Positions 3,832-57,536 of a stretch of DNA of 64,000 nt are shown here, one piece after another. The DNA comes from a virus (Duplodnaviria > Caudoviricetes). The notes below the pieces were generated by a model, which was given only the letters and a program-made list of their open reading frames with translations, was not told the DNA's origin and did no database searches. A program made the translations under genes and the position numbers. Positions within the stretch are counted from its first letter, which is position 1, and each line of letters starts with the position of its first letter. The stretch lies in IMG/VR virus record IMGVR_UViG_3300028172_000069, one strand, 5' to 3'.

Positions 3832-6800
3832 TCAAGCGTAAGTAACCTTGAAGGTGACCGCACCCAGGCTATCCCAGTCCGTACGGTACACCAGCCACTG
3901 CTGAGGACCGTTGCCATCGTGGCAATCGTAGGTGACTTCGATTGGGTCGTAGTTGTCGCCAACTTCGCCCTCTGGCGTCCACTGAATACCGCCAAAGCCG
4001 CCCGGTACGTTGATCGCTTGATCGGTGAAGGTCGCACGGCCCAGCGACTTCAAGTGCATGAAGTAGCCATACTGTGCATCGCCGATGTTGATGTTGAACG
4101 TCTCGCCCGAAGTACCCAGCGGCAGGACGTTGGTCATCACCTTGTCACCGAAGTCCTGAATGCCAGACCAGCGAGTGTACGGGATGTTGTACGTCTCGTT
4201 CGTGCCAGTCTTGCCGCCAGTGAAGTCAGTGTCGGAGAACATCGCTACGCCGAAGCGTGGACGATTGTTGCCCGAGACAACGGCTGCTTTCACTGTCAGG
4301 TTCGCAGTTGCCTGCTTGCTCACGCCAGCTGCGGTGTAGTTGAAGGTCAGCACAGTCGCAGTATCCGAAGACACGTTGGCCGCGTTGAAATCACCTTTGG
4401 TCGACTGCGAGAACGAACCGGCCGAAGCAACGCTGGTGCTGTATGTGGCAGTGCTGGTCACATCCTGAGTCGTGGAATCAGTGAAGTTCGCAGTTACCAC
4501 ATACTTGCCAGTGGCGCCCGATGCCAACTGAGTCGGACCCGATACAGTGATCGAAGCCAGCTCAACTGCTTTCTTACCAGTGACCGTCTTATCGGCGGCT
4601 ACGGTGATACCAGCTGCGGTGTAAGTCGCGTGCAGCGGGATTGCAGTGTCAGCACTCAGGTGCTTGACAGCCAGCGTACCATCAGTCGCCAGAGTTGCCA
4701 CAGTGGAGCTGGCAGTTGTCGACCAGGTGGCCAGTACGTCAGAGACGCTGCCGTCAGTCATGGTTACCTTGGCCGAGTAGGTACCGCTGCTATCGCTGTT
4801 CACGGTAGCTGGACCGTTGATAGCGAGCGACGACGGTACTGGTACAACGACGAGCGACACAGACTTCGTGCCGTTGACGGTGCGACCGAACTCGGTATAG
4901 GCGACCTTCACCGTGATGTTGCGGGTAGTGCCACCAGGCTTCTGGTTCGGAGTGAACACGCCAGATGCGTTGATGCTGCCGATTGGATCGCTAGGCGTGG
5001 TGCCTTCAACAGCCCAGGTACCAACTACATCAGCGCTGGTACCGTCAAGGTACGTTACCTTGGCGAGATACTGCGCGCTACCTGCACCGTTCGCAGCGGA
5101 CGAATTCACAGAGTTCGGGCCGGTGATCGCGATGGACGCTGGATAGTTCGTCACGTCATGCACAGCGATGGTCTTCGTCGCGGTAACCGTCACGCCGTCC
5201 AGCGTATACTTGCCAGTCAGGATGGTGTTGATGTTGGTACCCGACTTGTTCTCTTTGGCAGTGAACAGGCCGTTCGCGTCTATGGTACCAGCAGTGCTGG
5301 TGTTGCTCGACAGCCACTCGGTAGCTGGCATCACGACAGTGGTCTGGTCTTCGAAGGTGACGCGCAGTTCGTACTGCTCGGTCTTCAAGGAGTCCACCAC
5401 GGCACCACCGGTGATGCTTGCGCTCACTGGATAAACGGTCTTGTCGCGGACAGTCACGTTCTTCTCAGCGCTCACGGTGATACCAGACGCGGTGTACGAC
5501 GCGCTTACCTTGGTGCTATCATCAGCCTTCAGGTTTGCGTTGGTCGCCAGTGCACCAGTCGTTGGGTTGATGACACCAACAGAGGTCTTCGAGGAAGCCC
5601 AGTCGATTACACCTACCAGCGAGCTGGTACCGTCGGTGAACGTCACGCGCAGCACGTAGTTGCCAGTGTCACCTTCGTCGAGGAAGTCAGGACCTTCTAC
5701 GACAGCCGAAACTGGGTAGTTGGTCGAGTCAGTCACGGTAACGTCCAGCTCGGCACCTACAGTCTTGCCAGCCGCCGTATACGACGCAGTGATCTTGGTC
5801 ACCTTGTTGCCAGTGGTGTCCAGACCGTTCAGCACACCAGTGTTGGCACCGATGGTCGCAGTCGAGATAACCGACGACTTCCAGTTGGTGACTGGCACGA
5901 TGGCCTTGGTCGCATCGGTGAAGGTCACTTCCAGCTGATACGTCTGGCTGGTGTTCTCAGGCAGAGAGTTCGGACCCAGGATACGCGCACTGCTTGGGTA
6001 AACAGTGGTGTCCATGATGGTGATAGTCTTCGCCGAAGCGGTGACAGTCTTGCCATCGAGGGTGTACGACGCGGTCAGCGACGCTGGGGTGTTGACGTCC
6101 ACGTTTGCAGGCGCAGTTACGCGACCCGAAGTGTTGACGCTGGCACCGTTGCCGCCAGTGATCGCCCAGTTACCCGAACGGTTCGAAGTGGTACCATCAG
6201 CAAAGGTAACTGCCAGAGTGTAGTCAGCAGTCGAGCCTTCGTTGATAGTCGCCTGGCCGTTGATGACGGCGCTCACCGGGTAGTTGGTGATATCGCGGAC
6301 GGTAAGCAGCATGTCCGCAGTCACGGTGCGGCCGTACTTGCTCCACGACGCGGCCACAGTAGTGGTACCGTTCGCTTGCAGGTTGACAGCAGCAGTCACC
6401 AGGCCGTTTGCAGCACCGATCGTTGCAGCACCGCTGTTGGTCGAGGTCCAGTTGGTCACTGGCTCGTTCACCTTGGTGCCATCGAGGTAAGTAACCTCGA
6501 ACGTCAGGGTCTGCGTGGTGTTCTCGTTCATCTGGGCGTTGCCCACGACGCGAGCGCTCACCGGGTAGTTGGTGATATCCTTGATCGTGACTTCCAGCTC
6601 GGCGGTTACAGTCTGGCCGAAGGCGGAGTACGATGCAGAGACCTTACCCTTGGTGTCTTGCTGCACGTCGGTAGCTGCGACCAGCTGACCGGTGTTCTTG
6701 TTGATCGTACCCATCGCAGGGTTGGACAGAGCCCAGTTGCTGACGGTGACAACGTTGGTGGTGCCGTTGCTGAACGAAACACGGAACTGGTACTGCGTCA

Positions 6801-8406
6801 CGGTGTTTTCGTTGATTGCCGCCGAGCCGAGGATCACTGCGCTACGTGGGTAGACAGTGGTGTCCTTGACCAGAATCTGACGGCTGCCGTTGACGGTACG
6901 ACCTTCCAGGGTGTACGAAGCGGACAGCGTGGTAGCCTTGTCCTCGAACAGGTTGTTCGGTGCCTCGAAGACGCCGCTGGACGGGTTGATGGTGCCAGCT
7001 TCTTCGTCGCTCGAACGCCAGTCGGTGACTGCAACGTCCTTCTGGGTGCCGTTGGTGAACGTCACGCGCAGAGTGAAGTTGGTCGAGGTACCTTCGTCTA
7101 CTTCTGCAGGACCAACGATCACAGCCGACGAAGGGTAGATGGTGGTGTCGATGCAGCGCACGGTCAGGTTCGCGTCCTTGGTCACGCCGTTGAAAGCGTA
7201 GGTCGCAGCGATGGTCGTGGTCTGATCGGTAGTCAGCTCGCCAACTTCAAGCACACCAGTCTTGCTGTTGAACGTGCCAGCGCCAGGGTTGGACGAGGTG
7301 AAGGTGGTTGGAGTAACACCGGCGCTGGTGCCGTCGTCGAAGTGCGCGATGACCGAGTAGGTCGCAATCGAGTTCTCTTCCAGCTCGTTGACACCCACCA
7401 GTTCGATGCTGGTGAGCACCAGTTTGATGGTCTTGTCGACGATGGTGATATCCACGTACTTCACGCGCAGCTGGCCACTTTCAGGATGAGTCCAGCGCAC
7501 CTCGATGCGCAGCACTTGGTCCTCGTCAATGTCCAGCGACTGGAAGATACCAGTCTGGTTGCTGATGGAGCCGTACGCACCGTTACCGATGACAGCCCAC
7601 GAACCTTGCACGTTGTTCAGCACGCTACCGTCGCTGAACTTCGCATTCGCCTTGAAGGTGAACGGTACGGTCTCGTCCAGCGTGTTGCCTTCTGGGCCAA
7701 CGATTTCCAGTTCGTCGAAGGTTGGACCGTCGTAAACGAGGTCAGCCTTGACTGGGCGACGCCACTCACCGATCCACTCACCGTCTTTAGCACCTGGGCC
7801 AGTGATGGTCAGCACTTCGCCTGGCTTCGGCGTGTTGCTGGTACCAACTTTGGCGAGCCAGGAGTTGACGCCCGTTGCGCCGCGAATCATGGTGATCGGC
7901 AGCTTCGGGTGAGTGTGTGGAAGGGGATCACGCGCATCGCTCATACGCGGATCGTTACCGCCGACAACCACAGGGCTGTCTTGATCGGGCGTATATTCAC
8001 GGTTCAGGATTACGAGGCCACGAACGTCGAGAGTCGCAGCACCTACCTGCGGAACGTCTACTTCACCGAGGTTGAAGCCGCTACTGAAATCCCAATATTG
8101 CTGCTCTGCGATCAGGTCCTCGAAGGTGTCGAGTTCCTGCCAGGTGTTACGGAAGCCCACGGAAGGCAGCGCCGAAGTACGACGCAGGACCTTACCATAG
8201 GAAGCGCTGTCTGGATCAACGACGATCCAGCTGACGTTGAACGGCAGGGTGACGTTGTTGGGTTCCATGAAGGCAACCACAACAATCATGTTCTCACCAT
8301 TGCCGAGCGGCAACTGCACGGGGATTGGGTTCTCCCGTGCAAGGTTGCGGTAGTCAGCGAGCGCCACGGTCTGAGCTACAAACTCAGCGAGTGTTGGCGT
8401 TGGCAT
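3832..8406 (-). CDS. large Ig-like (Big_2-type) repeat tail fibre/virion appendage protein
   Basis: 1524 aa with about 12 repeats of ~95 aa (YPxSAxIxGP...Y.L.VTFxDGT) and an N-terminal DPRMSDARDPLPHTH fibre motif; downstream of the tail sheath gene. Confidence 0.85.
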   Translation of the reverse strand: MPTPTLAEFVAQTVALADYRNLARENPIPVQLPLGNGENMIVVVAFMEPNNVTLPFNVSWIVVDPDSASYGKVLRRTSALPSVGFRNTWQELDTFEDLIAEQQYWDFSSGFNLGEVDVPQVGAATLDVRGLVILNREYTPDQDSPVVVGGNDPRMSDARDPLPHTHPKLPITMIRGATGVNSWLAKVGTSNTPKPGEVLTITGPGAKDGEWIGEWRRPVKADLVYDGPTFDELEIVGPEGNTLDETVPFTFKANAKFSDGSVLNNVQGSWAVIGNGAYGSISNQTGIFQSLDIDEDQVLRIEVRWTHPESGQLRVKYVDITIVDKTIKLVLTSIELVGVNELEENSIATYSVIAHFDDGTSAGVTPTTFTSSNPGAGTFNSKTGVLEVGELTTDQTTTIAATYAFNGVTKDANLTVRCIDTTIYPSSAVIVGPAEVDEGTSTNFTLRVTFTNGTQKDVAVTDWRSSDEEAGTINPSSGVFEAPNNLFEDKATTLSASYTLEGRTVNGSRQILVKDTTVYPRSAVILGSAAINENTVTQYQFRVSFSNGTTNVVTVSNWALSNPAMGTINKNTGQLVAATDVQQDTKGKVSASYSAFGQTVTAELEVTIKDITNYPVSARVVGNAQMNENTTQTLTFEVTYLDGTKVNEPVTNWTSTNSGAATIGAANGLVTAAVNLQANGTTTVAASWSKYGRTVTADMLLTVRDITNYPVSAVINGQATINEGSTADYTLAVTFADGTTSNRSGNWAITGGNGASVNTSGRVTAPANVDVNTPASLTASYTLDGKTVTASAKTITIMDTTVYPSSARILGPNSLPENTSQTYQLEVTFTDATKAIVPVTNWKSSVISTATIGANTGVLNGLDTTGNKVTKITASYTAAGKTVGAELDVTVTDSTNYPVSAVVEGPDFLDEGDTGNYVLRVTFTDGTSSLVGVIDWASSKTSVGVINPTTGALATNANLKADDSTKVSASYTASGITVSAEKNVTVRDKTVYPVSASITGGAVVDSLKTEQYELRVTFEDQTTVVMPATEWLSSNTSTAGTIDANGLFTAKENKSGTNINTILTGKYTLDGVTVTATKTIAVHDVTNYPASIAITGPNSVNSSAANGAGSAQYLAKVTYLDGTSADVVGTWAVEGTTPSDPIGSINASGVFTPNQKPGGTTRNITVKVAYTEFGRTVNGTKSVSLVVVPVPSSLAINGPATVNSDSSGTYSAKVTMTDGSVSDVLATWSTTASSTVATLATDGTLAVKHLSADTAIPLHATYTAAGITVAADKTVTGKKAVELASITVSGPTQLASGATGKYVVTANFTDSTTQDVTSTATYSTSVASAGSFSQSTKGDFNAANVSSDTATVLTFNYTAAGVSKQATANLTVKAAVVSGNNRPRFGVAMFSDTDFTGGKTGTNETYNIPYTRWSGIQDFGDKVMTNVLPLGTSGETFNINIGDAQYGYFMHLKSLGRATFTDQAINVPGGFGGIQWTPEGEVGDNYDPIEVTYDCHDGNGPQQWLVYRTDWDSLGAVTFKVTYA

Positions 8407-52070: not shown

Positions 52071-52508
52071 TCATGCGGCGATGCTAAACACTGGTACTTC
52101 GGTTGGCGAGGCAGTGTAGGCTTTGCGCCCGCCGATGCGCACACCAGCGTAGAACATCCAAGCACGCCAGCGAGCTACGCCTTCTGCCCGCAACGCACGG
52201 TACAGGACTTGGTCACACTCCTTACGGTTCGGGTAGTAGATCGACCCGTCCGCTTGGCGAATGCCGTAGCCTGAGTACAACCAGTCGTGAATCGTGGCGG
52301 CCTTGTCACCGTAGTTGGCGAGCAGGGCGTAGAACACGAACAGCCAGATGTTGTGCAGCACGTCAATCGAGGCGTAGTTGGTCTGGAAGCCTTTATCTAC
52401 CTCGATCTTGCCGAACACAGAGTCCTGATAGGTGAACACGGCGAGCATCTGATACAGCCGCCGTTGGAGCTCGCGTGTGTCAAAGTGGGAGAATACGCCT
52501 GATGCCAT
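52071..52508 (-). CDS. DUF1353-like protein
   Basis: GFQTNYAS...AATIHDWLY...CDQVL...AGVRIGG pattern. Confidence 0.75.
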   Translation of the reverse strand: MASGVFSHFDTRELQRRLYQMLAVFTYQDSVFGKIEVDKGFQTNYASIDVLHNIWLFVFYALLANYGDKAATIHDWLYSGYGIRQADGSIYYPNRKECDQVLYRALRAEGVARWRAWMFYAGVRIGGRKAYTASPTEVPVFSIAA

Positions 52509-52536
52509 GATATACCTTCGGTAGCGTGTGGAAATG

Positions 52537-52560
52537 AAAAAGGCGACCCGAAGGCCGCCT
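52537..52560 (-). terminator. intrinsic terminator ending the RNA island
   Basis: AGGCGGCC-TTCG-GGTCGCCT-TTTT. Confidence 0.8.
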
Positions 52561-52561
52561 T

Positions 52562-52885
52562 AGTGTCCACTGTTTCCCGCACACCAGCACTGTCGCCCGA
52601 ACAACACTGCGGTCTGCGGAGAGGCTGTAGACGTGCCTACTCAACGGGCCCTTCCCCCGTACGCAACAACTGCCGAGCCGGAAAACCCTGGGCAGTTATC
52701 GGTAGTCTCCGCTTTCGCGGGCTCATGCTGGAGCTAGGCTCCGAATGGGTGCAGGCTCTTACCCTGCTTGGTGTAGAGGCTCGGCGGCGCGGCGCTTGGG
52801 GAGGGCTGGCTTCAAGGAGCATGGCAGCTGGATGAGTGTCTACCAATGGTGCCTTACGGCTACACGCATTACCTCTCACGAGGAG
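52562..52885 (-). ncRNA. candidate ~320-nt structured RNA rich in GNRA tetraloops
   Basis: No credible ORF; hairpins CCUC-GUGA-GAGG, GCC-GUAA-GGC, CCGC-GAAA-GCGG; helices AACUGCC/GGCAGUU and GUGUAG/CUACAC; bounded by a tRNA and a terminator. Confidence 0.6.
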
Positions 52886-52891
52886 AACAGT

Positions 52892-52965
52892 TGGGACGTC
52901 TGGGACTTGAACCCAGGACCACGCCGATTAACATTCCGGTGCTCTACCGACTGAGCTAACGTCCC
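52892..52965 (-). tRNA. atypical tRNA: GTT (Asn) anticodon on a Lys-like body, bulged anticodon stem, no encoded CCA
   Basis: GGGACGT/ACGTCCC acceptor, GCTC/GAGC D-arm, loop ATGTTAA, CTGGG-TTCAAGT-CCCAG T-arm, A73. Confidence 0.7.
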
Positions 52966-52966
52966 A

Positions 52967-53275
52967 TTAGTCTTTGAGTGCAACTCCGACACTCACTGCC
53001 AGACAGAACTTGCCATCGGGATTCGTGAAGAACGATCCGCCATAGGTGTAAGCCTGTCTGGTTTTGTTCTTGATCTTGCGCAAGTGATTCTTCATCAACT
53101 TGCGGATCGAGGAAAGAAGCAAGCGACGGTCGCTGGTGTCGTTGACCGCCAGCACTTCGTTGACCGTGACATACTTGTCGCCGAGCTTCGGAACTTGACC
53201 CTGGTCCAAATGGACAATGTCCAATGAGCACGAGGTAAACAGCAGTTTGATTTCTTCCGCAGTCATCTGACTCAT
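52967..53275 (-). CDS. hypothetical protein inside the tRNA cluster
   Basis: 102-aa ORF ending next to the 5' end of a tRNA. Confidence 0.6.
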   Translation of the reverse strand: MSQMTAEEIKLLFTSCSLDIVHLDQGQVPKLGDKYVTVNEVLAVNDTSDRRLLLSSIRKLMKNHLRKIKNKTRQAYTYGGSFFTNPDGKFCLAVSVGVALKD

Positions 53276-53382
53276 GGATCAGTTTCCAAAGCAGCGTGTA
53301 GGCAGGGCCAGTAACCGGTAATACCGTCACTGCTCTGATGTACTAGCGAATAGCGTTCTATCAGAACTCTGGCCCACAAAAA

Positions 53383-53458
53383 TGGTAGGACGTCCGAGAC
53401 TCGAACTCGGGACCCTCGGATTAAAAGTCCGGTGCTCTACCAACTGAGCTAACGTCCT
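53383..53458 (-). tRNA. tRNA-Lys(TTT)
   Basis: 76-nt cloverleaf, loop CTTTTAA, CCA encoded; C27-A43 mismatch. Confidence 0.95.
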
Positions 53459-53640
53459 AGAAAACAATCCCGCTTGCACAGACGAGTGGGCTTCTGTACT
53501 TGTGAACAGAGTCAGGGCGGGTACCTGTGGTCATTGCCAATACAGCGCCGTCCACGAGTTTCAGGCCGCATCAACAATCTAACTCTGGTTCGCTACCTCG
53601 GGCACGGCCAGCTTTGCAGCGCCCACTGAGGTTTTGAATA

Positions 53641-53716
53641 TGGCTCCCGCTCCTGGACTCGAACCAGGGACGCCACGGTTAACAGCCGTGTGCTCTACCG
53701 ACTGAGCTAAGCGGGA
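53641..53716 (-). tRNA. tRNA-Asn(GTT)
   Basis: 76-nt cloverleaf, CACGG-CTGTTAA-CCGTG, G73, CCA encoded. Confidence 0.96.
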
Positions 53717-53890
53717 AGGGTAAAGTGTGCGGTTTCGTGCGCATCGCCAAGGATAAACGTGCAAATCGTATCTTGGCTAACAGGCACAGCTCGTTCAAAT
53801 TGCGAAGCAGCCTCCGCGTACGGTCAGCGCTCTTTTACGTTTCCCAGTAATCCACCACAAGCTTGCTGGGTGTGCTCGCTTTGCAACGAA

Positions 53891-54106
53891 TCAGGCATTG
53901 CCGGTATACGCGACAAACACCTGCATGTTTTCTTTCACCTCGACAGGACTGCCTCGAGGTGTGAGGACACCACCGCCGTGACCTTTAACTGACCAGGTCA
54001 CTGTGTACACCACGCTCGGGTCTCGACCGTCGAGTTTGACGGCTTCTTCGTAGCTGATGGTGCGGCAGACAAACTCATGCGGCTTTGCATTCACAAAAAT
54101 TTGCAT
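53891..54106 (-). CDS. stand-alone ubiquitin-like (multi-ubiquitin-type beta-grasp) protein
   Basis: IFVNAK...ISYEEAVKL...YTVTW...GVLTP.GSPVEVKENM.V.V..T matches the bacterial multi-ubiquitin domain pattern as I recall it. Confidence 0.6.
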   Translation of the reverse strand: MQIFVNAKPHEFVCRTISYEEAVKLDGRDPSVVYTVTWSVKGHGGGVLTPRGSPVEVKENMQVFVAYTGNA

Positions 54107-54123
54107 GGCGGTGCTCTCGGATG

Positions 54124-54200
54124 TGGCGACTCCAACGGGACTCGAACCCGTGACCTCTGGCGTGACAGGCCAGCATTCTAACCGACTGAACTATGGAGCC
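54124..54200 (-). tRNA. tRNA-Asp(GTC)
   Basis: 77-nt cloverleaf, loop CTGTCAC, CCA encoded. Confidence 0.96.
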
Positions 54201-54205
54201 GAAAG

Positions 54206-54282
54206 TGGCGACCCGGACGGGACTCGAACCCGTGACCTCTGGCGTGACAGGCCAGCATTCTAACCGACTGAACTACCGGGTC
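54206..54282 (-). tRNA. tRNA-Asp(GTC), tandem copy
   Basis: Identical to 54124..54200 except in the acceptor stem; CCA encoded. Confidence 0.96.
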
Positions 54283-54488
54283 TATGATCGTAGCTTGCTC
54301 AACAAATTAGCTATCTGCAATTTCGCGCTCGGCAGCATAAGGGCAATGCTGAGCCCGATAGGTGCGACGTGTGCGTACTTCACAAGTGTGTTGGTGAAAT
54401 ACAACGCAACACCGACTAGCACGTAGGCAGTCCAAACACACGCATCGTACCGCGTTTCGCAGAATGGCTTGAAGATTCGCTTGAGCAT
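54282..54488 (-). CDS. small membrane protein
   Basis: Two hydrophobic segments; TCTGTAAA motif upstream at 54523-54530; start uncertain (54500 or 54488). Confidence 0.5.
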   Translation of the reverse strand: MLKRIFKPFCETRYDACVWTAYVLVGVALYFTNTLVKYAHVAPIGLSIALMLPSAKLQIANLLSKLRS

Positions 54489-54534
54489 GTGTATTACCAA
54501 AAGCAGAATTGTGTGGCTCTGCTTTACAGAATTG

Positions 54535-55323
54535 GTGCCAGCAGGTAAACTTACCGCACGTACTCGTTGCTGGGGCGGGCAACGTGGACCAGTGTGCGTA
54601 CCAAGCAGCGTGGCATTACCTTATCGAACAGCTTGGGTGCCGTATTCCCAAACGCTCTATCTGACGTGCTGCATTTCATCGGCTCCGCGTAGGTACCAGA
54701 CGAATGATTAGGTGCCTCAGACTCGTTACCGCGTCAGAACCAGAAGGAGATTAGAGTTCACCATGTGCCAGGAGTTGAAATTGGGTAGCCCGGTCATTCG
54801 ACCGTAGCATCTGTTCTCTATCCTGCGCGCAGCGGGCGATCCTGTAACGTCTCTTAAATTCTCAGTAAGAAGTCGAGCCTGAGGCGAAAAATGAAACCCA
54901 CCTAGAAGATGGAAGGCTTATGCTAATGTCGCGGCGGAATTCCTGCTGTCACTACCCAAAGCTGAAGGGCTTGATCTGGCTGGCTCGAAGCTGCGTTGTG
55001 TTGGCTTTCTTTCCTTTACACTTCTAGGTGGGAGTGGTTGCGACTTCCGAAGAAGCCGAGCGAGCAACTGATTCCTGGGTTAGAGGCCCAACACCGCATC
55101 CAGTAATACAGAAGGCAACCGTGCGCTTGATAGGCGATCACTCTAGTCCCTTGTACGTTGCGCAGAGACAAACGCAACGGCACGCCAACGCAAGACTCAC
55201 GCGGCCTATGCTCCGCAATTCATCCATTAACCACAGCAGGAAATTCCGTGGTGACGGTCCGGGAAATCGCCCCTTTGACCGCTGAACTCAGCCGCACAGC
55301 TTATCAGGCCGTTGGCTGTCGCA
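54535..55323 (-). ncRNA. candidate giant (~790 nt) ornate non-coding RNA
   Basis: No minus-strand ORF of 60 aa or more; several long-range helices of 7-15 bp, a C(UUCG)G hairpin and many local stems. The 3' boundary is approximate. Confidence 0.7.
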
Positions 55324-55385
55324 GACTCCGTAGAGTTTCGTGGGCCTTTCACCCATACACGGACTTGAACCGTTCATCAGTGCGA
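55319..55385 (-). ncRNA. type I hammerhead ribozyme with an extra hairpin in the core
   Basis: UCGCA-CUGAUGA-[ACGG UUCAAGU CCGU]-G UA UGGG..CCCA C-GAAAC UC UACG GA GUC-UGCGA; predicted cut between 55324 and 55323. Confidence 0.8.
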
Positions 55386-55399
55386 GTAATGAATTAGCA

Positions 55400-55645
55400 T
55401 TTCGAGATTGGCCTGCACCGTACATCTGGCTTCGTGCAAGCCTCTCCTCGATTCAGCAACCGCAGCCAATGGCGGCGCCTTTGTGGTTTGTGCGGGATGG
55501 GATCGCTGGCCGGATCAGGTACCCATCCCTATCTACATCGCGCAGCCTGACTTCCGGCAGGCGATGGTTCTGTTTGTGGTTGCAGCGCTTCACCCGATTC
55601 CGGCGGGTGTTGCACTGTCTGGAGCCTGACGCTGCACAGGCTCAA
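55400..55645 (-). ncRNA. candidate ~245-nt multi-hairpin RNA
   Basis: Perfect stems GAGCCUG/CAGGCUC, CACCCG/CGGGUG, GCCUG/CAGGC and GGGAUGGG/CCCAUCCC; no credible ORF. Confidence 0.6.
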
Positions 55646-55669
55646 AATGAAGATCAGCAAGGTGTGTCC

Positions 55670-56170
55670 TTACGCAGGTTGTTCGACGTGCTCGGTGAGA
55701 CGGCCGAATGCCAGTTTGTGAACAGCAAACAGTTCGGTACCGTCTGCACCGTTGAAGGCGCGCTTGACGCTGGCGTGCACCACGTTTGCCAGTTTGAGAT
55801 ACTTGACAGTTTCACCATCAGCTCCAAACTGACGCAGGATGATCGCGTCAAGCTTGGTGGTCTTGAAGGCTTCGATACCGTCGAGCACTTCCTGTTCGGC
55901 TGGAACGAAGTCGCTGAACGCAAACTCCGCAGCTTGCATCATTGCACCCGCAGCAGGATCAGACGCAAAGACGAAATCTTGTTCGGTGATCTTCACAGTT
56001 CTCAGGTTCAGCTGGAGTGCCTGAATGGCATTCACCAGAACTGGCGCCACTTCCTGAGAACAGTCGATCCGCCACAGGTCAAAGTTGTCGTTCAATGCGA
56101 TCTGTTTGATCGCGGTAACGTCATCCAAACTAACCTTGCCTGCAACGGTAAGCTGTACTGAATCCGACAT
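55670..56170 (-). CDS. hypothetical protein
   Basis: SD GGAG; GCTAATTC motif about 25 nt upstream. Confidence 0.75.
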   Translation of the reverse strand: MSDSVQLTVAGKVSLDDVTAIKQIALNDNFDLWRIDCSQEVAPVLVNAIQALQLNLRTVKITEQDFVFASDPAAGAMMQAAEFAFSDFVPAEQEVLDGIEAFKTTKLDAIILRQFGADGETVKYLKLANVVHASVKRAFNGADGTELFAVHKLAFGRLTEHVEQPA

Positions 56171-56209
56171 AGCAATCTCCGTGCTTGTCAATGAATTAGC
56201 AATCGCGGT

Positions 56210-56875
56210 TTACACTTCCGCCTTGCGTGGAAGGATGATCCAGTCGTTGGCGGTCACGTCCGACTGACTGGCAACCCAGGCAACGCAGTCACCCTGCGCC
56301 GTGTACATATCAATGTGGTCACGGTAGCTGATGACCTTGCCCTCTGGGAAGATGCTCGCCAACGGCGCGCGGTTGACCGTGAAGGTCGACGCAGGCACGT
56401 AGTAGATGAACATATTCTTGCCGTTCCAGTTCTGGCGGCAGGCACGATAGCCAGCCTTGATCGCTTCGACAGCAGTGCCGAAAGACTGCGGCGCTTGGCT
56501 TTCAACCAGGGAATCGAAATCCTGAACTTCTGGGAAGCACGGGTGGTGATCGTCGGCGCGACGGGCGAATGCGACCTTGAGCGTGATCGTGGTCTGCGGC
56601 ACTGGCGGAACTTTGGTGAGCAACACCTGCGATACGTGACCTTCGAGGAAGTACACGGCAGTCGCATCACCCTTGAGTTCGCGCAGCTTGAGCTCCAGAC
56701 GTGGAATCACCTCACGCACATCGTCAGTATCGACGGTGGCGGATACGTCGGTGTAGTCAACGACGCGGGTGTTACCTGCGACGTCCATGTAGGTACCGTG
56801 ATCGAGGCCGCGGATCACATGCAGACCCAGCGGCTTCAGGATGTTGAGCAACAAATCTTGTTCGAGCGGAATCAT
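56210..56875 (-). CDS. DUF2829/Tad2-like domain protein with N-terminal extension
   Basis: SFGTAVEAIKAGYRACRQNWNGKNMFIY...WVASQSDVTANDW matches the DUF2829 pattern F..A...K.G....R.GWNG..M...W..SQ.D.LA.DW. Confidence 0.75.
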   Translation of the reverse strand: MIPLEQDLLLNILKPLGLHVIRGLDHGTYMDVAGNTRVVDYTDVSATVDTDDVREVIPRLELKLRELKGDATAVYFLEGHVSQVLLTKVPPVPQTTITLKVAFARRADDHHPCFPEVQDFDSLVESQAPQSFGTAVEAIKAGYRACRQNWNGKNMFIYYVPASTFTVNRAPLASIFPEGKVISYRDHIDMYTAQGDCVAWVASQSDVTANDWIILPRKAEV

Positions 56876-56882
56876 GTTTGCC

Positions 56883-57536
56883 TCACAGTAGGTTGTCGAG
56901 TTCGTCACAGATGAAACGATCGCGGTGGAGCTCCATCGGGAAAGAGTCACGCACACACTTGAGTGCATACATTATCTTTTCCATGGTAGGTTCGGTAAGC
57001 AACTGAACCAGCATGACACGTGGCGCGAGCAGCGTCAGGTAGCTGCGCTTCCACGGCATTCTGCGCGCCATCACAACATCGCGGACGAGTTGTAGGTAGG
57101 AACCCCACTGCACCAGATCGTCATACAGTGCGCCAACGTTCAGAGCCTTCAACGTGCTCTGGTAGAGCTGGTAGCCACGATAGATGCGCCGCGCATTAGG
57201 ATCGAGTCGATTCATCCGCAGGAACATCAGCGCCTCGGATGAATGCTCAGGCCTGAACAGCATGAAGTGGCGGGCGTTGCAGACGTGCATGAACTGCCGG
57301 CGCTCAAAGAAGTCGCGGGTGTAGTCATGCGCCTCGATGAACAGGACTTCCGCGCTCGGGTCAACCCACGGGCTCAAGGCGTTTTCGAGATATGCCTCAG
57401 CGTTCCGACCTGCATCAGGCGGAGCACACGACACCGTCGCAGTTGATCGCAGGTAGTTGCCAAACTCCAGAGCGTTGAGTCCAACAACCATGAGCGGGCG
57501 ATTGAGTTCTTCGACTCTGGCCAGTTGGAAGTTCAT
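56883..57536 (-). CDS. hypothetical protein
   Basis: SD GGAGG before ATG 57536. Confidence 0.65.
   Translation of the reverse strand: MNFQLARVEELNRPLMVVGLNALEFGNYLRSTATVSCAPPDAGRNAEAYLENALSPWVDPSAEVLFIEAHDYTRDFFERRQFMHVCNARHFMLFRPEHSSEALMFLRMNRLDPNARRIYRGYQLYQSTLKALNVGALYDDLVQWGSYLQLVRDVVMARRMPWKRSYLTLLAPRVMLVQLLTEPTMEKIMYALKCVRDSFPMELHRDRFICDELDNLL

Follow-up and report, generated by a model that had tools for sequence, protein, structure and literature searches.

A predicted type I hammerhead ribozyme with a T-loop hairpin beside its core in PaBG-like jumbo phages

The stretch of viral DNA analyzed here (64,000 nt; IMG/VR record IMGVR_UViG_3300028172_000069; hereafter the window) comes from the genome of a jumbo myovirus; its GC content is 55%, the proteins encoded include a tail sheath, a DNA polymerase and large helicases, and almost all of its genes lie on the minus strand. 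Our subject is a 67-nt element at 55385–55319 on that strand, which is also the strand of all neighboring genes; it begins ~285 nt past the stop codon of an open reading frame (ORF) of 173 aa (55670–56191) and precedes, by ~1.04 kb, an array of five tRNA genes. The closest record (98% identical here) and one further viral contig hold an identical element, and the 173-aa upstream protein, used as a query, retrieved near-identical contigs only. A first-pass annotation of the window had claimed a hammerhead ribozyme with a tRNA T-arm-like hairpin in its core at this site, together with a promoter-like motif just upstream, and the analysis reported below leads us to regard the element as very probably a self-cleaving ribozyme of the type I hammerhead class, encoded by a PaBG-like jumbo phage; its stem II domain departs from the standard form, and its catalysis is a prediction.

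Reading the minus strand, we find all of the hammerhead parts at the positions first assigned to them, in the strand order of a type I hammerhead. The 5′ strand of stem I (UCGCA, 55385–55381) pairs with UGCGA at 55323–55319 and is followed by the core strand C3–A9 (CUGAUGA, 55380–55374). Directly after A9 stands the T-arm-like hairpin ACGG-UUCAAGU-CCGU (55373–55359), whose loop is indeed that of the window's tRNA-Asn (52892–52965), as had been claimed. G10.1 (55358), which faces C11.1 (55340), is followed by a 2-nt linker, UA, to 55356 and by the distal stem II hairpin U-GGG-UGAAAGG-CCC-A (55355–55341), comprising the 10.2–11.2 pair, a GGG/CCC stem and a 7-nt loop. Beyond C11.1 lie the core bases G12, A13 and A14 (GAA, 55339–55337), a stem III of 4 bp with a UACG loop that includes the A15.1–U16.1 pair (ACUC(UACG)GAGU, 55336–55325), and C17 (55324), the last base of a GUC triplet; the predicted cut falls between 55324 and 55323, such that the 3′ strand of stem I would form the 5′ end of the downstream RNA.

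This arrangement is rare by chance. A generic hammerhead descriptor (CUGANGA, 6–70 nt of any sequence, GAAA, a stem III closed by an A–U pair, a non-G residue, and stem I) matched the two strands of the window exactly once, at this element, and 200 dinucleotide-preserving shuffles gave 0.05 matches per shuffle in its relaxed form and 0.01 at the observed stringency. Folded in isolation, the 67-nt element has the proposed structure as its minimum-energy fold (−19.2 kcal/mol).

Homologues carry most of the argument. The DUF2829 protein encoded two genes upstream led to Pseudomonas phage PaBG, in which the gene neighborhood matches that of the window (protein identity 25–78%) and an unannotated gap of ~1.5 kb that precedes the tRNA cluster holds a complete counterpart (NC_022096 121565–121641): stem I GCGGA/UCCGC, core CUGAUGA, T hairpin GUGG-UUCAAGU-CCAC, an additional hairpin (GGC-GAAA-GCC), a GGGUGAAAGGCCC hairpin identical to the window's, AC-GAAA, stem III CUC-AAAC-GAG and the cleavage triplet GUA. 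When the window was compared with the PaBG noncoding regions by BLAST, the element was the only conserved island and the rest could not be aligned; a BLAST of the window's noncoding kilobase against PaBG and RSL2 likewise found nothing conserved except the ribozyme. BLAST and pattern scans added RSL2-like jumbo phages of Ralstonia and Burkholderia, two uncultured viral contigs (L040, 310 kb; L041, 218 kb) and one metagenome contig (L048), the last being the one true member among matches to a conserved 19-mer in metagenomes and genomes; the 12 other 19-mer matches lack the combination of CUGANGA and T hairpin and were taken as chance. Scans for patterns that join a T-hairpin hammerhead to a different distal hairpin returned, among the matches listed, only the window lineage, PaBG, L040 and coding or chance matches, and a scan in which the GGG/CCC stem was left free found no variants. 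A covariance-model search found exactly one copy in each of five phage records. In the PaBG-like and RSL2-like jumbo phages, as in a few uncultured relatives, the element is a single-copy feature with an intergenic setting, often in a tRNA island.

The comparison set comprises 11 sequences from six lineages, and its stems change in step. All five pairs of stem I covary, each with three or four Watson–Crick types, the sole mismatch being a C·A at 2.1–1.1 in L048. Pairs 1–3 of the T stem covary (two to four types) around a constant loop-closing G–C pair, and the hairpin follows A9 directly in every homologue with a UUCRA loop (UUCAAGU in five lineages, UUCGAGG in the RSL2 group), which bears out the earlier placement of a T-arm-like hairpin between A9 and 10.1. 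All 11 sequences have the A15.1–U16.1 pair, after which three pairs of stem III (15.2–15.4) covary, in stems that range from 4 to 10 bp with loops of either 4–9 nt or 156–202 nt. In stem II the 10.2–11.2 pair also covaries (C–G in seven sequences, U–A in three, C·A in one) and the GGGUGAAAGGCCC sequence is invariant, while position 10.1 is G in seven sequences, A in three and U in one opposite a constant C11.1. The linker after 10.1, 2 nt long in the window, measures 4–43 nt in the homologues and can hold a further hairpin, as it does in PaBG and the RSL2-like phages. Against these drifting stems the core CUGANGA and GAA are constant throughout apart from N7 (U, C or A), and at H17 the bases C, A and U occur but never G. 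A variable N7 and H17 in an otherwise fixed core, with the consensus CUGANGA, is the textbook hammerhead pattern. The first-pass annotation had proposed a search for homologues with covarying stems and had named loss of CUGAUGA, GAAA or GUC among them as grounds for abandoning the hammerhead; such homologues exist in six lineages, with covariation in stems I and III and the T stem, and only N7 and H17 vary.

In an alignment of the four compact members to a covariance model, 96.9% of cells pair and 10 of the 16 pairs change on both sides. The covariation score was reached by none of 500 shuffles; when the partners were slid by one to three columns as a control, at most two pairs changed on both sides. 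MAFFT misaligned the 3′ halves of the sequences, and the model R1 misaligned the class with a giant stem III, which was therefore parsed by script.

In this class, which comprises L041 as well as the RSL2-like phages, 156–202 nt separate stems III and I from their partner strands downstream (minus-strand loci L037 2439–2701, L038 2434–2717, L039 2440–2719, L056 540–817 and L041 1857–2171). A stem III of 9–10 bp is followed by U17 and then by a perfect 5-bp stem I, and the long-range stem III contains a double change from C–G to U–A between SURPRISE13/RsoM3USA and RSL2/FLC6. The further hairpin formed by the linker after the T hairpin covaries within the RSL2 group as well (GUG../..CAC versus GUC../..GAC). 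An initial reading of the RSL2-like copies, with a local stem III and a bulged C, yielded no stem I and was replaced by the long-range stem III together with stem I. The 156–202-nt insert of stem III itself contains hairpins and a repeated GGCCGCC/GCCGCC motif.

With six independent lineages keeping the whole design through compensatory changes, the claim of hammerhead identity is strongly supported. The feature that sets these RNAs apart is that stem II does not start right after A9: in all members a 15-nt hairpin stands between A9 and 10.1, and the three-way junction of the hammerhead therefore becomes a four- or five-way junction. In structure the element represents a new variant within an established class of ribozymes, one that at least six phage lineages keep and that current models miss.

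If the element is active, the RNA would cut itself between C55324 and U55323. The upstream fragment would retain the whole ribozyme and end in a 2′,3′-cyclic phosphate, and the downstream ORF-poor RNA (~1 kb, extending to the tRNA-Asp genes) would be released with a 5′-OH and five ribozyme-derived bases (UGCGA); an RNase P cut would be expected at the first tRNA-Asp, ~1.04 kb on. This cleavage and the resulting 5′-OH RNA are plausible on the grounds of core conservation and of a single contig break in public sequence libraries. Nineteen soil "metatranscriptome" runs (X1–X19, from separate studies, 2018–2019) hold all sampled words of 52500–57500, and in the four runs examined along this region (X16, X11, X14 and X1) it is assembled in contigs of 4.5–79 kb, with word depths in the thousands in three. 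In run X16 adjacent contigs share the usual 30-nt overlap (55324–55353), and the upstream one ends exactly at C17; a 1106-nt contig (54248–55353, reaching to the tRNA repeat) has a depth of 2774, compared with 1377 upstream and 1454 downstream. As a trace of cleavage the contig end at C17 is suggestive only. The phage, as DNA or RNA, is abundant in these libraries or is a shared contaminant of them, and expression cannot be read from them because the whole phage is present as long contigs, possibly of DNA.

Several observations weigh against a functional hammerhead. The Rfam hammerhead models (RF00163, RF00008 and RF02275–7) match neither the window nor five homologous loci at E ≤ 10, so that the search with hammerhead models suggested at the outset came back empty, and Rfam reports no hammerhead and no other family at the site or in the homologues, either at gathering thresholds or at E ≤ 10; we attribute the failure of these models on all members to the four or five helices of the junction. 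The 10.1–11.1 pair is A·C or U·C instead of G–C in four lineages. The 15-nt hairpin adjoins the A9/G10.1 metal site, an arrangement without precedent that might make catalysis slower or eliminate it. The invariance of the GGGUGAAAGGCCC hairpin and of GAAA is partly due to construction, because both formed part of most search patterns (PaBG excepted, which was found via its gene neighborhood); the T hairpin, CUGANGA, stems I and III and H17 lie outside the 19-mer pattern and therefore constitute independent evidence in true matches. The break at C17 occurs in one of the four runs, being absent from X11, X14 and X1, and contigs cannot prove RNA ends; moreover, these libraries cover the entire phage genome deeply, so that DNA may be present. 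Finally, the 91-nt stretch that includes the flanks folds as an extended hairpin instead of the proposed structure, with an unremarkable z-score of −0.31.

The extended hairpin, which is the minimum-energy fold of that stretch and buries CUGAUGA, belongs with the least probable of the alternatives we considered, namely that the site holds either such a flank-including hairpin or what is left of a decayed tRNA gene (its T-arm, in a tRNA island) beside chance hammerhead-like words. The T-loop, identical to that of the nearby tRNA-Asn, speaks for a remnant; however, ARAGORN and the Rfam tRNA model call five tRNAs in the window and none at 55319–55400, the descriptor counts in shuffled sequence are against chance words, and stems I and III covary, including across 150–200 nt, which excludes a tRNA remnant combined with chance words. 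In PaBG, past the T stem, the extended hairpin would place A9 opposite an A and A6 opposite a G, and we reject it as the functional fold because it cannot form there. We therefore give this pair of explanations almost no weight.

The absence of Rfam matches, an unprecedented insertion at a catalytically sensitive place and the non-canonical 10.1–11.1 pairs would also be consistent with a catalytically dead relic or a look-alike RNA, inactivated by the insertion at the A9/10.1 metal site and kept, for example, as a transcript-stabilizing structure; indeed, hammerhead-like sequences proven inactive have been listed (Perreault et al. 2011; PMC3088659). Such a relic should nevertheless not have kept all 11 core bases, A15.1–U16.1 and a non-G residue at position 17 in six lineages while its stems drifted in a compensatory manner, and the X16 contig end at C17 points the same way. 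We consider a dead relic very unlikely, and continue with the hammerhead as the preferred reading.

The role of the T-loop domain is a separate question. Stem I is 5 bp long, has no loop or bulge, and the flanks examined among the homologues contain no conserved complement to the T-loop or to the UGAAAGG loop; the usual contact between stems I and II therefore seems unavailable, and any tertiary contact of these stems would have to be of a new type. The T-loop hairpin and the UGAAAGG hairpin always co-occur, and we infer a T-loop three-dimensional fold for the former from its sequence only. In the tRNA elbow the T and D loops dock onto each other, and the GG end of the UGAAAGG loop may be likened to the GG of the D loop. 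By this analogy, our preferred guess, offered tentatively, is that the two loops dock as in a tRNA elbow to create a rigid block that would replace the loop I/loop II contact and hold the core in its active shape. Because the bases that would interact are invariant, covariation is silent on this contact. If correct, it would amount to a new way of stabilizing or controlling the active fold for a stem I whose length does not allow the usual contact.

The same features can be read differently. RNase P and T-box RNAs use T-loop modules to recognize tRNA elbows, and engineered aptazymes carry sensors in stem II; the hammerhead fold could accordingly be kept with cleavage made conditional, the stem II domain being a sensor or docking site for a tRNA elbow, a T-arm enzyme (TruB, TrmA or RNase P) or a phage protein, and the RNA being a switchable ribozyme or mainly a binding platform. 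That the T-loop signature (a G–C closing pair and UUCRA) is kept exactly while the T stem covaries, that the T hairpin and the distal hairpin always stand together, that stem I offers no site for the usual tertiary contact, and that in four of the five lineages with enough context the ribozyme lies in an ORF-poor tRNA island all fit this proposal. No result points to a ligand or partner, however; the RSL2-like copies have no tRNA within 2.5 kb, the neighboring genes differ between the PaBG-like and RSL2-like groups, and the strict conservation of all catalytic bases argues for selection on cutting itself. Conditional cleavage is in our judgment an unlikely explanation of the element as a whole. 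We are similarly doubtful of its more specific form, in which the T-loop and the GG-ending hairpin make up an elbow-like or elbow-binding module and cleavage would need a partner (a tRNA, TruB, TrmA or RNase P, or a phage factor); were it true, this would be a natural allosteric hammerhead tying the processing of the phage tRNA and noncoding RNA island to the translation state of the host.

Upstream of the ribozyme, the promoter-like motif is present as described, but its reading as a promoter fares less well. The octamer GCTAATTC stands at 55398–55391 (minus strand), 5 nt upstream of stem I, and at two copies in the window it is not above chance (30 of 100 shuffles do as well). It is part of a 12-nt motif, TGCTAATTCATT (55389–55400, minus strand), with an uncertain link to the ribozyme; a second exact copy of the 12-mer lies at 56202–56191 (minus strand), ahead of the next upstream gene, and both copies are intergenic and stand before a transcription unit. 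At the place in PaBG that matches this second copy we find AATGCTAATTG (NC_022096 120113–120122), and PaBG encodes its own sigma-70-type factor (PMC7412058). TGCTAATTCATT may be a phage-specific promoter element, in which case the ribozyme would stand at the very 5′ end of the transcript and simply remove itself. Neither GCTAATTC nor TGCTAATTCATT occurs upstream of the homologous ribozymes, and the motif is therefore not part of the conserved unit; a scan for sigma-70 promoters and terminators found nothing useful near the element. In the RSL2-like copies L037–L039 and L056 a strong terminator-like hairpin, with a U-rich run after it, is found ~20–60 nt upstream, immediately before stem I, and its loop has AAUCUCG in common with the bases that directly precede the motif in the window.

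The sequence around these ribozymes has features of its own. In the window, the ORF-poor ~1.04 kb from the predicted cleavage site to the first tRNA-Asp (54283–55323, minus strand) contains a weak terminator-like hairpin (54913–54897) and, in its last ~200 nt, a possible small membrane-protein ORF with an internal ATG (54282–54500). In PaBG a second T-loop-like hairpin, GGGUUCAAGUACACC, lies ~25 nt past the ribozyme (L034 3160–3185), an unannotated 60-aa, membrane-like ORF with a GAGG ribosome-binding site (L034 3607–3789) stands just before tRNA-Ala, and this tRNA-Ala is 94 nt long and may carry an insertion or intron. In a 310-kb uncultured phage (G002; L174 being its positions 70000–82000) the ribozyme, at ~6820–6891 of L174, lies in an ORF-poor stretch of ~2.3 kb (5115–7545) that starts at a tRNA-Ile whose anticodon, AAT, is unusual.

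No small ribozyme has been studied more than the hammerhead, whose core is regarded as an unvarying three-way junction; if the element is what we propose, that core tolerates far more than single-base bulges. Current covariance models would then be missing a whole subclass, and surveys of hammerheads in phage genomes would undercount them. As PaBG and RSL2-like phages are cultured, the predictions made here can be tested directly at the bench. In the openly searchable literature we found nothing relevant on T-loop or T-arm hammerheads, on hammerheads in jumbo or nucleus-forming phages or on PaBG ribozymes, and no mention of such a ribozyme was found in the PaBG genome paper.

Compared with the type I hammerheads of bacteria and phages (RF00163; PMC3088659), the element shares an open stem I, CUGANGA, stem II, GAAA, a closed stem III and an NUH triplet, as well as all invariant core bases, the A15.1–U16.1 pair, covarying stems I and III, and an intergenic setting in phage operons. 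It differs in that its stem II is a T-loop hairpin plus a conserved hairpin, sometimes with a third, and not a simple hairpin on G10.1–C11.1, in that its 5-bp stem I has neither a loop nor a pseudoknot partner, and in that the Rfam models do not score it. Permuted hammerheads (Eckert and Weinberg 2023) are a different form from this element. The T hairpin shares with a tRNA T-arm the closing pair that resembles G53–C61 and a 7-nt U-U-C-R-A-N-N loop, the same as that of the window's tRNA-Asn, whereas its stem has 4 bp in place of 5 and it comes without acceptor, D or anticodon arm. Insertions within or next to the hammerhead core are tolerated in the natural variants A6a, U13a and G2a/C2b (Perreault et al. 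2011; PMC3088659); these, however, sit at other positions, involve 1–2 nt, have mostly reduced or salt-dependent activity, and in no case add a helix. The only documented precedent we found for an insertion at the backbone position used here is the (+) hammerhead of CChMVd, in which, according to the account in PMC3705267, a single extra A10 between A9 and G10.1 is compatible with activity (De la Pena and Flores 2001); where that ribozyme accommodates one bulged base, the phage element carries a 15-nt structured hairpin at exactly the same point, conserved and covarying among its homologues.

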